A stretch of 64,000 nt of DNA from Paraspadella gotoi (Eukaryota > Animalia > Chaetognatha): assembly GCA_051294375.1 (NCBI GenBank), contig CM119267.1, forward strand, positions 7,730,683 to 7,794,682. The letters are read 5' to 3'. The notes below the pieces were generated by a model, which worked only from the letters and a program-made list of their open reading frames with translations, did not search any database and was not told the DNA's origin. Of the stretch, positions 4,901-10,900 are shown piece by piece; positions within the stretch are counted from its first letter, which is position 1, and the number at the start of each line of letters is the position of its first letter. A program made the translations under genes and the position numbers.

Positions 4901-7900
4901 TTCACTAACTTTATGGAACATTTAACCAGTTTTCCATTGATTTCTCCGTAAAAATTCAGATTGACGACGTTCATTTTTTTTATTGGGATTTTGGGTTTTC
5001 TGAATCAGCGGAATTTTATTTTTTTTATTCCGAAGTGAGTGAAGGGTAGAAAAATTAATCGGCTTAAAAAGATTTATGAGAATCTCTTTTAAAAGAAATT
5101 TTCCTCACTCCTCGCATTTTCTTAATGATTAAAGCCGACAATGGAGTTTGATAAATAGTAAAGATGGAAAAAATAAATGCTTTATCGATTGTTTTTAGGC
5201 CTTTTTAAAAATAAAAACGTTAAAAAGAAAAGTTTTTTATATTTTTACGTTGCCTCCCGCCAAGTTAAACCGCTTATTTTGAAGGTGAAACCGTCATTTA
5301 AAAAAAAAGGCTGGGCCATGGGATTAACGAACGAATGAATGAACTCTTTAAATTCTTTAGAAAATGAACGAAAGAATGAATTAATGACCAATAAAATAAT
5401 TTTTCATCCTGATTTCGATGATAAGCTTTTGATTGACGATTTCAAAAGACGAAGACAACGAAAGAACTAGATGATTAATGATGTAAGATTTTTTTTCAGA
5501 ATTGATCTGATCTGTAAAGGGAATAATTAATAACTACAAAGAATATAAAGAATGCTTAAAGATACATTGGGAAAGAGGCTTTGATCGGAGCTGCGTAATT
5601 TTCTAGATCGAGAATGGGATGATAGGAGATGGAGGGGGGGACGAACTCTTGATAGTGATGATTGACAGATTTTGGCCGGGCGGTGATCGAACTCGGGATG
5701 GGGCAGATTTCCGGGAGAGTGAGGATGGTGATGATGATGTGGTGAACTGTATCGTGCAGAATATGACAAATATCGTTGACGATAGATGTTATGGATATGA
5801 TAGATAAAATGAAAAATTTTTCTTTTTTTTTAATATTTGACTTCGTTTTTCCTTGAATAAAACCTTTTTTTTCGATATGTAACTTTGAATAGTACTCTAT
5901 ATTGTTATACGTATGCCAAAAAATGTGTACAAATATAATTCTTAAGTATTAAGATGTTAAAAAATCAGAGAAAAAAATGGGAGAATTAATGACAAAGTAG
6001 CGGAAGGTTAAATTCGGCCATCACTCGAGGATTCACTTCTCATCTTTTTTTCCCTTCAACTTTGACACGAGAAAGAATTATTAGTCGGCTGATATTTTTT
6101 TTTGTTCTCAATTCGAGGTTATGATGCGGACGAGCTTGGATTTTTTCAAAGATATTTTTTGTTTGAGATTTTGTTTTACCTAAATTTCTGCGCCTTTTGG
6201 CGTTAGGACGTTGATTAGTTTTGGTGTCAAGTATTCGAGCAAATCTTTAAAGCCTCTTTGCTTTGGTTATTCATTAAAAAAATTAGCAAAACTGTCTGTG
6301 ATTTTGCCAGTTAAGAGATACGATATTGATAAGAAAATATTCTGTAGCAATGAATCATACTACTTATCAAATATTCGACAGGGAAAAAAAGATTTTTTTT
6401 CATGTCAGTTATTAAAATATATTTACATTAATTGCTATTCATAATACTGAATACATGAAGTCAAGTTTTTCAGGAAGGGCGAATTTAATATTGGTTGTCC
6501 GTCGCGTAGCTCAAGATATTATTTCCTCCTGAATGGCCCATGAAACGAGGCAAGGCATTAATTAATTAACGGTTATTTAATCGCAATAGATTTCTTTACG
6601 TTTTACGTATTAATGATGTACACGTCGGTAAAGATTTGCGCCGAACCTTGCCATTCTTGATGTTCATTTGGACACCAAATTAAGTTTCTTCGACGACGCT
6701 AGGGGAGAAACCATCGCATCTCCAAAAGAACAACGTGATTCGTGCCTTTGTTTTAGGTTGTTTTTGGTTTAGGAGAGAATATTTATTTCGCTTTTTATTT
6801 TAAATACGCATCGCCGTAGAGAAAAGTGAGAATACAAAAAGGGCGCGGGAAAGAAGGAGAAAAAAATAGTTTTGAATCTCCCTCAGCTCTGGAGAACTCG
6901 TCTTTAGAACGTCTTTTGTTTTTCTCATTTTTGTTTACAATTGAACGGCAATAAAAGGGGACGAAGAGTTGGCAGGACTCGTGTGCGTGTAGCTGGATCG
7001 ATGAAAGTGCACGCATCTCCAAAGACCGTCTCGATCGCGACGCCACACGCGTGACTCTTCACACTGGCGCGCGTGAGGAAGGCCCGTTTTGGGATCCGTG
7101 AATTGAGTCAATAGAACGTAGCCTATCACGCCGGCGTCGGGGCCTACCAGTAGGTTGGAAGTAATGAGAGCAATGAGTTAGAAGAAGTAATGAGAGCTTT
7201 ATCTTTCTCTCCAAAAAACTCCAGACGTTAAGACTAACTCTGAACTTTCATTCGTATCTTTTAGCTATTTCATTTTTGCAGTTTTGAAAATGTTACCTTA
7301 CCTAAAAGATGAACTCTGGGCGCAATCAAGTTGACTCTAAAAGTTTTTTTCTCGTTGAGACCGAGATCGAAGTAGTATTTGTGGAATTCGCGACCTTCAA
7401 TCAGGCATCCCTTAAAAAATGAAAAAAAAAATATCAAATAATATTAAAATGATATTAAGCAAAAAATGTCGCCTTGTCGCGACGTCGATCGATTGATAAG
7501 TTACCGACCTGCGACTCTGGCTCGAAGCAAGTGAGATCATGCGACGTCATTTTTTTCCACGTGTCGTAATCTCCTCTGCCGATTGCGTCGATCAGCGTCT
7601 CAGTTACTGTGATGACGTCATCGGCGGTTGCCGCCGGAGCGCCTGAATGATGGGCGTTCATTTAATTTCTAAAGAGGGGAAACGAAAGAAAATGAAGGGA
7701 AAATAGGCGCATTGCCATCCTAACCTGAAGCGGACTGACGAAGATGCGGCACGGCATTGTTTACCGGCGTGGTTAAGGTTACGGTTTGTGTCGATGACGC
7801 GTTGTGGACCACAGTGTCGGCCGAGCTGTTGCCGGTGCCTGACGAATGTTGCTGGGGTGGCGGTGTCGTCGAAGCCGACGATTGCTGCTGAAGAGCGGAA

Positions 7901-10900
7901 GTTACCCCGAGCAGGCCGCCCATTCCGCCCCCACCGCCACCAAATAGTCCTCCCCCGCCGGATCCACCCGAAGGGGTCGGACCAGGCGCCGCAGAGGACG
8001 TCGCCGTCACGGGCCCGTTACCCCCGGCCGCTGACGAGGTTCCGAGTTTGCCGCCCAATGCGAGGCCGGCGCCGCCGCCCGTACTCAGAGTCTTAGCGCC
8101 AGTCAGCGCGGACAGCGTTTTGTTAAAAGAAGAAGGGAGCGCGCCGCCGCTTGCCGCGCTTTTGTCCGGCGTGTCGGGCATGATCCCGGGAAACTTTTTA
8201 AAAAAAGATAAATTCATTTTTTCCCCCTTTTTTGTGTGGTTTTTAATTTTTCATTCATTTAGCATGATTCTCCCTTCGAGCAAGTATTCACGAAAAATAT
8301 CTCGGGTTTTGCAGAGTTATGAGGTTTTTTTTTTATTTGACAAAAACCGGATATTTTAATGGACTCTTGAAAAATTTACGTATCGCCCAGACAGAAGAAA
8401 AAGCAAAAGGCAAAGGACAAACCCAAACAAACCCACTCTAAACCTGTTTTAATTAAAATCCAGTTGGGACTAAATTGAAATTTTGAAGTGCCTAGTGGCT
8501 CGAAAGCAGTGATTCGAAGTTGATCTACTCTAGGTTATAAAAACAAAACACAAAAAAAAGAGATTCCCAGTCCATTTATGGGCTGGTTATTTAAATTTTT
8601 TTTTAGAGAAAAAAAAACATTTTTAAACGAGTAAACTCTTCTTGTTGCTCGAGGGAATGTTACCGCATTGGCGAAAAAATCGATTCGTTCCCCAAGCTGC
8701 AGCTTTAGAAGATCTGATTGGTCGCCGCCGGATCACGATGGGAATTATCTAACCAATGAACGAAGCAATCGTTGCGGAGTGCGGGGGAAGACTCGGGATG
8801 GGAGAATGAGAGAGAGTGAGTGTGTTTGAGAAAATGTGAGAGTTTTTATACGTCAGCGAGAGGTTTTTCTAGAATTTGTTAAATAACAATGTCCCTTTTT
8901 TCGTTTGCTTTATATTATGAAGTTGAATGTTTACATAAACATACTAAAAGAACCATTCTTTAATTTGCATCCATTAAAACTTATAGAAAGCACGAAGAGT
9001 CTAGTCATGATGCAACCTGGCTGAGTTGAATTCGGGTGGCTCGAAGCCAACAACCAGATTTCGGGCTGTCGATAATCCCTCGGGCGAGTTTTTAGCGGCC
9101 AAAATCCCGTAGGGAAGCTCTTCTCCTTCGACTTTTTTTTATTACTTGTTCTTTTTTTTTTTTTTTCCTTTTGCACCTTCGATAATGAAGCTGAAAACTG
9201 CTATGAGAAGTTAGGAAAAAACCGTCTAAGCTTACCAAACTAATAAAGATAGAAGCAGCATTGAGTTTAAGAAAAAAACTCTCAGCTTTCTCTTTCTCCA
9301 AAATACATCGAGGGTGGGGGGCGGGGGCGGGGGCGGGGGCGGGCGGTGTTTATCGGTAAACAAAAGATGGAAAATCAAAATAAATCAAATAAAAGCGAAG
9401 GCAAGCTGAAGAATGTTGGCCTTTTCTTTTTAGCCTTCTTCGTTTCGCTTTCGTCAAAATCAAAACCTGTGATTTCTTATTTAATATTTTTTTTTCTTTT
9501 GAATATGTTTCTAAATGAATTTTATTGGATATTTTATAGCTTAACTAAGAAAATTTTAAGATTATATGAGCATACTACTAATTCCCCTTATTCCCTACCT
9601 TGTGCGACTCTCCCGCCAGCCAATGCCCTGCACGTCCGACGTTTGCCAAGGGTCGATATTGAAATCTAGTTGTCCGTTTTCGAACGGGACGGGTCCGGCT
9701 ATTGCTCCTCGCAACATCGGTTATACGGTGCGAACCAAGGCTGAACTCATCAAACATGCGACAGACTTCATCGACCAGTACTACTCTTCCTTTAAAAGGT
9801 GAAGACATGACTGTCGCCGACGTCTCTTGAGTCGTGCCTCTCACGTGTCCATCCATTTCTCATTTTGAGTTAATTTTACTTTCGCCGACCGGGGTTAGGG
9901 GGGGTGTTGGGGTTTAGGTGGTTTGGGTAATCGGGTAATATTTTTTTCAAATTTCTTTTTTTTATTTTAAAAAGAAATATTTTTTAAGTAGTTTACCATC
10001 TCTCATAAAGGTTAACTTTAAGTATGATGAAGGGCAGACGATACATTTCGCCGTAAAACACTATATTTAATCAAATATCATTCGGACCAATTCTTACGAT
10101 TAACTCTGCAGACAAAACACACCTGCGCACAAATCGCGTCTCGCGGAGGTTCTTCGCTCCATTGAGACGACAGGGTCTTACGACCTAACTGAGACGGAAC
10201 TCATCTTTGGAGCCAAGACAGCCTGGAGAAACGCTCCCAGATGCATAGGACGAATACAATGGAACAAACTTCAGGTTATCCACTACTAAGAAATTTGCTT
10301 TCGGAATTTAAATTGATCGATTCCGATTTGGGTTGTGGCAATGTTTTTGGTCAATTTTGAAGTCGAGGCTAAAATGGCCGAAAACATTCCTTACGGATAT
10401 ACATATACATATTATACAACATACAATAATACATTTTCATATTGTTAACTATGCATTATTCATCAGGTTTTTGACTGCCGATACGTTACAACTGCGAGAG
10501 GAATGTTCGAAGCAATTTGCAATCATATGAAATATGGTGAGTATCGACTACCAGATTAAATTGTCACTTATTTGTGTGCTATATTTTTTATTGATTTTTA
10601 GTCGGATCTGCTTATCAGCAGATTCCAACTCTATAATTCATTTTGTCGGTCCGCCCCCTCAATCTTGTCGGGCATTCACAATTATAGGTCAGAACATCGA
10701 ATTATAATAAATTATGCAAAAAAAAATCAATGTCCATCCGTCTGTAGGTCCGTCCATCCGTCCCCCTTGGCAAAAAACTCCAATTACTCGTGATAGGATT
10801 GTTAGATTGGAATGAAATTTTGTGTGTTGGTAAAAAAGTGTGTGATTGAGCGAGATAAAAAGTTTTGATGGAATCGTGCAAATGGAAATGAGTTTCAATG

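Follow-up and report, generated by a model that had tools for sequence, protein, structure and literature searches.

The locus described here raises two questions: whether an animal can carry a separate gene for the association domain, or hub, of CaMKII without the kinase, and what such a gene would be doing inside a nitric oxide synthase (NOS) gene. By the window we mean the whole stretch of DNA that was analysed, 64,000 nucleotides of Paraspadella gotoi contig CM119267.1. The answer to the first question is that the CaMKII hub gene on the minus strand of a NOS intron is real, separately spliced and conserved, and that it encodes a hub without a kinase.

Gene structure and transcript

The host gene is NOS: in Pfam searches four of its exons match NO_synthase, one matches Flavodoxin_1 above cut-off and two match FAD_binding_1, and its RNA joints reach 21150. 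The hub transcript (5918-8845) lies wholly inside intron 4849-9619 of this opposite-strand host, between the NOS exon at 4647-4750 and those from 9620 onward, and is a nested gene, antisense to NOS as the first-pass annotation had placed it. The RNA evidence comes from one run, X1, which we take as RNA because its joints are spliced; runs X2 and X3 cover next to none of the window. The features of the locus are as follows.

4647..4750, plus strand: NOS exon with the N-terminal hook, preceding the host intron (in-frame splice to 9620, RNA joint)
4846..4848, plus strand: NOS microexon of 3 nt that encodes one Lys, lies between AG and GT and is used optionally (RNA)
4849..9619, plus strand: NOS host intron, 4,771 nt, containing the entire hub gene (RNA)
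5918..7143, minus strand: hub gene exon 5, C-terminal sheet of the hub, stop at 6937-6935 and 3' UTR (CaMKII_AD 76-126, RNA contig)
7302..7410, minus strand: hub gene exon 4, middle of the hub including interface aromatics and His395 (CaMKII_AD 43-79, RNA joints)
7509..7642, minus strand: hub gene exon 3, end of the arm and hub helix A up to the FEPESQ loop (CaMKII_AD 3-40, RNA joints)
7725..8193, minus strand: hub gene exon 2, starting with a 12-nt leader before the ATG at 8181, then the low-complexity Gly/Ser/Thr/Ala arm of 152 codons (RNA, translation)
8664..8845, minus strand: hub gene exon 1, non-coding 5' exon (RNA joint 8193/8664, 182 nt on the exon-1 side)
8844..8856, minus strand: TATA-like box with a TGACG word before it, candidate promoter (sequence, 5' edge of the RNA contig)
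9620..21234, plus strand: remainder of NOS, covering the oxygenase, flavodoxin and FAD domains; its 3' limit is approximate (Pfam)
12914..15182, minus strand: second antisense nested gene, 416 aa, two exons, in another NOS intron (RNA, translation)

A single unbranched 2,123-nt contig from X1 is spliced across all four introns of the hub gene, which thus has five exons, one of them non-coding. The earlier description as a four-exon gene holds for the coding exons (8181-7725, 7642-7509, 7410-7302 and 7143-6935, together an open frame of 302 aa) and fails for the total, to which the RNA adds exon 8845-8664. The introns between the coding exons measure 82, 98 and 158 nt, and all are GT-AG. On translation, exon 1 holds an in-frame TGA at 8735-8733; the first exon is therefore non-coding and the mRNA yields a 302-aa kinase-less protein. 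An upstream ATG at 8668 is out of frame and begins a reading frame of 31 codons, which overlaps with the main start, and the 3' UTR measures at least 1,017 nt, reaching at least 5918. At the other end of the transcript, the TGACG word is presumably a CRE-half-site-like element, and we take the TATA-like box to be a candidate promoter element. An alternative acceptor at 7668 creates an in-frame stop and is unused by the RNA.

A six-frame scan of the window with nine kinase and regulatory motifs gave four incidental matches and no kinase exon; the 55 kb upstream of the hub gene are free of kinase motifs and hold other same-strand genes. This bears out the earlier statement that the window has no kinase or regulatory exons upstream, and the non-coding spliced first exon, together with orthologues that are all kinase-less, likewise upholds the view of a separate hub gene rather than the tail of a CaMKII.

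On the NOS side, the RNA includes the form 4750-AAA-9620, a form in which the microexon is skipped, and the joint 4750-4846. The number 4 given to the host intron in the first-pass annotation is provisional, as the count shifts with this optional microexon.

The hub domain and its arm

Three exons each match the Pfam profile CaMKII_AD (PF08332) above cut-off, at positions 3-40, 43-79 and 76-126 of 128 (E values 3e-8, 1e-5 and 7e-14), which agrees with the first-pass description of an arm of ~155 aa followed by a complete association domain. An NTF2-like hub fold is predicted, judged on the orthologue P0003: the AlphaFold model of P0003 has a pLDDT of 85.5 and, in a Foldseek search against the PDB, superimposes on the CaMKII-delta hub 2w2c with an rmsd of 1.0 Å (E 1.7e-14). 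With canonical CaMKII (CAMK2A-D, unc-43) the window hub has in common this fold, the interface aromatics and H395, R453 and R469, whereas it comes without kinase domain, regulatory segment and calmodulin site and its hub introns lie elsewhere. The places of these introns differ from those of canonical CaMKII, which is indirect support for the earlier remark that they are unlike vertebrate ones.

At the level of single residues, F394, Y398, H395, H420, H466, H468, R453 and R469 are retained, and position 397, at which Phe is described as a ring-interface residue of CaMKII (PMC4859805), is Tyr in all 13 rows of the clade formed by the window hub and its orthologues. H418 and H456 are replaced by Arg in the clade; the interface aromatics and equatorial histidines listed above are present, as judged by sequence comparison. 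The RKQE start of helix A is lost. The cavity has changed as well: Tyr369 is Trp in 13 of 13 clade rows, while the other 156 hubs have Tyr (150), Phe (5) or Cys (1), and of the cavity arginines 453 and 469 are kept and 433 is Leu, again in 13 of 13 rows. Arg433 is present in 147 of the 156 other hubs; the nine without it include nematode-type and beetle CaMKII, the canonical beetle protein P0013 likewise having Leu, so that the difference is not absolute. Residues 369 and 433 are reported to contact ligands in CaMKII-alpha (PMC11400628, PMC8346900).

The arm has the composition G32/S24/T19/A19 in the first 155 residues, a count in which the last three residues are mis-spliced. Its exon has no Pfam match, and neither a membrane anchor nor a recognisable targeting motif was found in it by Pfam and hydropathy. 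In alphaKAP, which vertebrate CAMK2A produces without a kinase, the N-terminus is a hydrophobic membrane anchor, whereas the window arm is hydrophilic: the best 19-residue hydropathy is 1.09 in the window protein, within a range of 0.6-1.15 for the hydrophilic arm, compared with 1.8-2.2 in alphaKAP-like matches. Directly N-terminal to the hub a motif H-x-R-x-S-[A/T]-S is conserved, which presumably resembles a CaMKII pseudosubstrate and is a lead only; it comes without the hydrophobic -5 and +1 residues.

Orthologues, relatives and origin

The orthologues comprise five environmental protein clusters (90% clusters), all hub-only and with at least one plankton-type record. Their hubs are 87-93% identical, local blocks of the arm are 51-68% identical, and the position of the start codon is conserved in P0001 and P0004. 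The nearest canonical hubs are only ~50-54% identical to the window hub, and no kinase-bearing protein above 54% identity was found in searches of proteins of 166-531 aa and 120-2000 aa, nor one in the best 150 of 780 matches of any length. A metagenome scan with the hub alignment gave nine loci from 311 candidate stretches, at 34-44% identity, with no orthologue among them. The chaetognath genome paper PMC12460157 does not mention CaMK or NOS in its text and three supplements, and our searches found no chaetognath genome literature that treats CaMKII. The RPEL region of a Phactr gene in the same window reaches 91% identity, level with the conservation of the hub; this is its identity to two environmental clusters, the other 118 among the matches listed lying at 65% or less.

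Several other hubs without a kinase were compared. alphaKAP, also an animal protein, resembles the window protein in that its association domain is complete while kinase and regulatory segment are both missing; it arises from an alternative promoter of the kinase gene and is believed to direct CaMKII to membranes (PMC5882894). Its hub, however, is that of the kinase gene itself, while the window hub belongs to a separate gene, ~50% diverged and with different introns. Kinase-less hubs of nematode-type and amphipod origin (P0043, P0057, P0068, P0087, P0091) also consist of an N-terminal extension and a hub, and a nematode cluster of this shape was the second ESM Atlas match; unlike the clade, they have hydrophobic N-termini and hubs that group with canonical CaMKII in a quick tree of 164 hub rows, and we tentatively take them to be isoforms of the ordinary CaMKII gene or incomplete models of it. 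Two near-identical hub-only RefSeq models from another animal, the hemichordate Glandiceps talaboti (XP_077999528.1 and XP_077999218.1, 146 aa), are armless, have a canonical-type helix A and cavity and fall outside the clade; they may be split annotations. The stand-alone hubs of Chlamydomonas (PDB 6OF9) and Pirellula are, like the clade, products of separate hub-only genes and equally far from canonical hubs, with common states at 401, 412 and 428. They differ from it in that their hosts have no CaMKII kinase, while the window's host is an animal, and in that the Chlamydomonas hub keeps the three cavity arginines (10.1101/536094), whereas Arg433 and Tyr369 are replaced in the clade; the long arm and four introns of the window gene are also unlike the algal and Planctomycetes hubs.

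Together with the window hub, the five clusters make up a compact clade whose stem is very long (1.27 changes per site, terminal branches below 0.08). The first-pass annotation had hinted at an old independent origin, which the trees neither establish nor contradict. A careful free tree places the clade on the animal side with support of 97/93, and AU tests do not reject a placement outside the animal rows (p 0.55) or a grouping with non-animal hubs (p 0.51 and 0.45). At 17 animal-diagnostic sites the clade has the animal state five times (I351, E355, K371, H420, Q448), the non-animal state three times and a state of its own nine times, and its difference in profile score (+4 to +6 bits) lies between the animal and non-animal sets. 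We consider it fairly likely that the 3' part of an animal CaMKII was duplicated to give this gene and that its introns were then turned over.

Possible function and alternative explanations

The window protein very probably assembles into hub rings, since the interface residues are kept. That it also co-assembles with CaMKII, as the analogy with alphaKAP would suggest, is an even call. We tentatively favour, at a little under even chances, a stand-alone hub gene for a ring-forming, non-catalytic subunit that mixes with the animal's ordinary (presumed) CaMKII. Hub subunits would join the rings of that kinase, and in such mixed rings the kinase domains would be thinned out, or the ring would be tethered through the arm. 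With fewer neighbouring kinase domains trans-autophosphorylation would decrease, and the calcium memory of the kinase would be damped. A kinase-less hub variant of this type has apparently not been described so far; those in the literature consulted are products of a kinase gene, such as alphaKAP (PMC5882894), or genes of kinase-free organisms (10.1101/536094). If an animal conserves a stand-alone hub gene, nature would have supplied a non-catalytic subunit with which to test whether the cooperativity of the holoenzyme and the exchange of its subunits depend on hub composition. The purpose of the three-arginine cavity, whose function is stated as unknown (10.1101/536094), becomes testable too, because the clade has changed two cavity residues and then fixed them.

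Algal and bacterial hubs are about as distant from the human hub as the window hub is from canonical ones (10.1101/536094), and the window hub may therefore have diverged away from mixing. It would then form its own rings, as the algal and Pirellula stand-alone hubs do (10.1101/536094), and either display 12-14 disordered arms as a multivalent scaffold or bind a different small ligand in its remodelled cavity, or do both, possibly as a transferred non-animal hub that gained introns later. We regard this as a somewhat doubtful but serious possibility: the long stem followed by short terminal branches, the two fixed changes at ligand-contact positions, the lost start of helix A, the introns unlike canonical ones and the non-animal placement that survives the AU tests all fit it, while the best free tree and the five animal-type residues point to the animal side, Leu433 also occurs in canonical beetle CaMKII, and no close non-animal relative was found in our searches. 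Were the exons instead part of an ordinary CaMKII with kinase exons far upstream, either as its 3' end or as the product of an internal promoter, alphaKAP and the nematode-type and amphipod hubs with hydrophobic N-termini would be precedents, acceptor 8194 is in phase with the ATG, and a kinase-fused form might escape notice as contigs drop rare splice forms. We think this very unlikely, as the exon that is spliced to acceptor 8194 is non-coding, the upstream 55 kb offer other genes and no kinase motif, the three protein searches given above returned no kinase-fused clade member, and hub and introns are too divergent for the canonical gene. A transcribed but decaying duplicate would account for the long stem, and the upstream overlapping frame may reduce translation; the intact frame, the high identity of the hub in five clusters while the arm varies, and the conserved blocks within that arm make decay highly improbable.

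As to the second question, the first-pass annotation proposed a candidate NOS-CaMKII regulatory module with coupled or mutually exclusive transcription; as a selected module, hub gene and NOS would in this way tune the control of NOS by CaMKII in the same cells. Favouring this are the position of the hub gene entirely within the NOS intron, the splicing of both genes in one library (X1), and R-x-x-S words, which we take as a consensus for CaMKII, in the flavodoxin-region insert of the window NOS. In addition, rat nNOS is described as phosphorylated by CaMKII at Ser847 (PMC7662388), and nested genes in C. elegans are reported to be able to induce their host (PMC12274878). We nonetheless find the module unlikely, having seen no support for it beyond position. 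A still more speculative and improbable picture joins these threads: a whole animal lineage would have a dedicated kinase-less hub gene, possibly non-animal in source, with a rebuilt cavity and disordered arms, whose product would enter CaMKII rings as a ligand-sensitive dampener and which would be kept in NOS for joint or opposed switching in NO-producing cells; if true, nature would here have set up an experiment that shows what the hub and the orphan pocket do without the kinase. That the hub gene sits inside NOS is probably incidental: it would have landed by chance in an intron that is large. Opposite-strand nesting is described as the usual kind, and in Drosophila co-expression or functional linkage is reported to be rarer for nested gene pairs than for neighbours (PMC3814207). 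The exons of the hub gene and NOS do not overlap, and NOS holds a second antisense gene, unrelated to the hub gene and represented by a 1,561-nt RNA contig with one joint.

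Hub gene and its transcript

The hub gene within the NOS intron is a real, conserved variant of a kinase-less CaMKII hub, and its expression is seen in one run. Its coding exons are as follows.

Coding exons of the hub gene
8181-7725 (-), coding exon, arm, no Pfam match
7642-7509 (-), coding exon, Pfam CaMKII_AD match
7410-7302 (-), coding exon, Pfam CaMKII_AD match
7143-6935 (-), coding exon, Pfam CaMKII_AD match

The introns between them measure 82, 98 and 158 nt, all are GT-AG, and the joined frame encodes 302 aa. The three downstream exons, each above the Pfam gathering score, jointly span positions 3-126 of the 128 of CaMKII_AD (PF08332), confirming the association domain read by the first-pass annotation; searched against the PDB, the last exon retrieves CaMKII hubs, with the C. 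elegans hub 2f86 at the top (E 2e-11). The arm has no hydrophobic stretch by hydropathy. Nine kinase and regulatory-segment patterns searched in six frames gave four incidental matches and no kinase exon in the window, as the annotation had stated. Just N-terminal of the hub, at 7760-7725 (-), lies the sequence H-x-R-x-S-[A/T]-S-G-A-P-A, kept in the full-length orthologues, a possible phospho-site or pseudosubstrate-like element.

X1, a single public run that we take to be RNA by presumption, carries 0.59 of the sampled window words. One of its contigs (2,123 nt) covers 5918-7142, 7301-7409, 7508-7641 and 7724-8193 with CT..AC joints, which mark minus-strand introns, and its final 182 nt join at 8664. 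The four-exon gene of the annotation therefore stands in its coding part and gains a non-coding first exon, 8845-8664 (-). Since this exon contains an in-frame TGA followed by no in-frame ATG, the protein of the X1 mRNA begins at 8181; in this run, at least, the hub exons are joined to a stop-bearing leader and not to kinase exons, again as first proposed. The end of exon 1 also carries an out-of-frame ATG (8668), which opens a 31-codon frame (spliced, 8668-8107, -); this frame overlaps the main start and could damp translation of the hub protein. The contigs are silent on transcription starts, levels and rare forms, and the evidence for the hub transcript comes from this one run.

Relatives and intron positions

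With the last exon as query, five of 26 candidates of 120-2000 aa matched, sharing 77-85% identity and carrying no domain but the hub; they represent five 90% clusters, whose 12 members come from the JGI, Logan and merc sets, and we infer that the clusters are different species. The hub of one of them (P0004) as query matched 32 of 120 candidates (166-531 aa), the same five at 87-100%, and below this clade identity falls to 54% (a beetle CaMKII). An index-free search gave 780 matches, the best 150 of which hold three full clade members and one 62-aa fragment, the others reaching at most 52%. None of the clade members aligns to the CaMKII kinase domain. Identity to the window protein is 87-93% over the hub (~125 residues) but 51-68% over local arm blocks; the start of the window protein and an N-terminal block recur in P0001 and P0004, the remaining orthologues being shorter or starting differently.

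The annotation noted that the two internal hub introns appear to differ in position from those of vertebrate CaMKII, and the break points of 29 gene-caller products picked for display agree, if indirectly. Hub homology begins at an R-K/R-x-C-D step in seven of the 29 and breaks after Y-F-D-N/H in two, which points to these as the canonical sites. The window gene has neither; its introns lie after FEPESQ and inside the Gly following VHLL. Both do have an intron immediately ahead of helix A, in the same phase and about four codons apart. Because the orthologue fragment P0132 turns into unrelated sequence immediately after FEPESQ, its organism seems to share that intron.

Other short or unusual hubs

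The full-text literature searched, which covered few subscription papers, yielded no account of an animal gene that encodes a kinase-less hub by itself, nor of such a gene inside NOS. Hub-only models from a hemichordate and short hub records from a sea urchin and mites nonetheless weigh against uniqueness. The two 146-aa RefSeq models from the hemichordate Glandiceps talaboti (XP_077999528.1 and XP_077999218.1; of the pair P0082 and P0324, the second has several altered C-terminal residues) are possibly independent stand-alone hubs or split models, and the short sea urchin and mite records may be split models. In the ESM Atlas, the nearest clusters are short hub proteins from chordates (0.93) and nematodes (0.92). 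Hub proteins of amphipods and of nematode type that begin with a hydrophobic stretch (P0043, P0057, P0068, P0087, P0091) suggest that products like alphaKAP, the kinase-less CAMK2A product, occur in invertebrates. Many environmental proteins (P0017-P0031) are a dihydrofolate reductase fused to a CaMKII-type hub.

Ring interface and ligand cavity

An AlphaFold model of the orthologue P0003 (50-row alignment; pLDDT 85.5, pTM 0.77) has the CaMKII-delta hub as its best Foldseek match, at an rmsd of 1.0 A. Using human CaMKII-alpha numbering, anchored on the six residues that the title of 6OF8 lists, we compared 13 clade rows (the window and 12 others, from five clusters and so not independent) with 156 other hubs. 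The clade retains F394, H395, Y398, R453, H466, H468 and R469, with Tyr at 397; F397 is described as holding the CaMKII ring together (PMC4859805, PMC7538161). The ligand cavity is described as lined by Y369, R433, R453, R469 and H395 (PMC11400628, PMC8346900). Y369 is Trp in the clade (elsewhere Tyr in 150, Phe in five, Cys in one), and R433 is Leu (Arg in 147 of the 156; Leu once, in a beetle protein). L392, H418 and H456 are all Arg, and T/S-A-D-D replaces the RKQE start. With these ring residues retained and the cavity changed, the hub seems to have kept its ring assembly and to have acquired a remodelled pocket.

Origin of the clade

The clade, in a tree built from 46 rows and 124 columns, is supported at 100/99, with a stem of 1.27 and tips below 0.08, and falls on the animal side of a split supported at 97/93. 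Three alternative placements all survived AU tests: outside the animal rows (p 0.55), where the likelihood exceeds that of the free tree by 2.6; among all non-holozoan hubs (p 0.51); and among planctomycete-like hubs (p 0.45). Profile score differences between animal and non-animal sets are +4 to +6 bits for the clade, 3.8 to 66.6 for animal hubs (55 of 56 above 9) and -42 to +6.4 for non-animal hubs (60 of 61 below -6); at diagnostic sites the clade has five animal, three non-animal and nine private states. These groups come from an earlier tree with several unnamed "animal" rows, which makes the test circular in part. We take duplication as the simpler account, gene transfer being the other candidate. 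P0326, a full-length CaMKII with a divergent hub, has an extra loop residue and an R-C-V-H-F-H-R end in common with the clade; trees do not join the two.

The NOS host

Pfam identifies the plus-strand host as NOS (NO_synthase on four exons, plus Flavodoxin_1 and FAD_binding_1). Exon 4647-4750 (+) joins 9620 in frame, so the host intron falls inside the conserved N-terminal region of the oxygenase. The antisense nesting reported earlier is borne out: the entire hub transcript lies within this 4,771-nt intron, and the mature hub and NOS RNAs therefore cannot pair. RNA contigs revealed two further features.

Additional features of the NOS locus
4846-4848 (+), optional NOS microexon of 3 nt (AAA, Lys), directly preceding the zinc-binding Cys motif
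12914-15182 (-), second antisense gene, in another NOS intron; 416 aa, two exons, own RNA contig

X1 contigs include, skip or partly splice the microexon. The 416-aa protein has a Pro-rich middle and a coiled-coil-like C-terminus with a weak Mis12 match below cut-off; an N-terminal word, with no Pfam call, resembles the PAM2 poly(A)-binding-protein motif. A Ser-rich insert in the NOS flavodoxin region, 17235-17355 (+), holds two R-x-x-S words, candidate CaMKII sites.

Possible roles

We lean, at somewhat under even odds, towards a hub protein that would build hub rings and enter those of the ordinary CaMKII as a non-catalytic subunit, where it would lower kinase density or tether the ring through its arm. 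Nearly as likely, perhaps one chance in three, it no longer mixes with CaMKII and acts independently, as a multivalent scaffold or by binding a ligand. That the exons belong to a CaMKII isoform with remote kinase exons is very improbable against the non-coding first exon, a window in which the pattern scan met no kinase exon and a clade in which the searches met no kinase-bearing member; a decaying copy is scarcely credible for a gene expressed and conserved.

The annotation's further proposal, that hub gene and NOS form a selected regulatory module, is unproven and in our view unlikely. Spliced NOS joints occur in the same run as the hub transcript, nested genes in C. elegans are described as able to induce their hosts (PMC12274878), and in mammals CaMKII and nNOS are indeed linked (PMC7662388); yet nothing observed here ties the hub gene to that link, NOS houses a second, unrelated antisense gene, and nesting in Drosophila is described as common, chiefly opposite-strand and independent of shared function (PMC3814207). 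A metagenome scan found no genomic DNA of a relative.

Other genes in the window

Further genes lie within 24000-63600.

Other window genes
near 31.8 kb (+), rhodopsin-type GPCR
near 42-43 kb, DHHC palmitoyltransferase
49-55 kb, WW+PTB adaptor
60-63.6 kb, Phactr

The gene near 24 kb is probably IFRD-like. Phactr shares 91% identity with two clusters and no more than 65% with any other of the further 118 matches listed, which argues for a lineage without a close named proteome.
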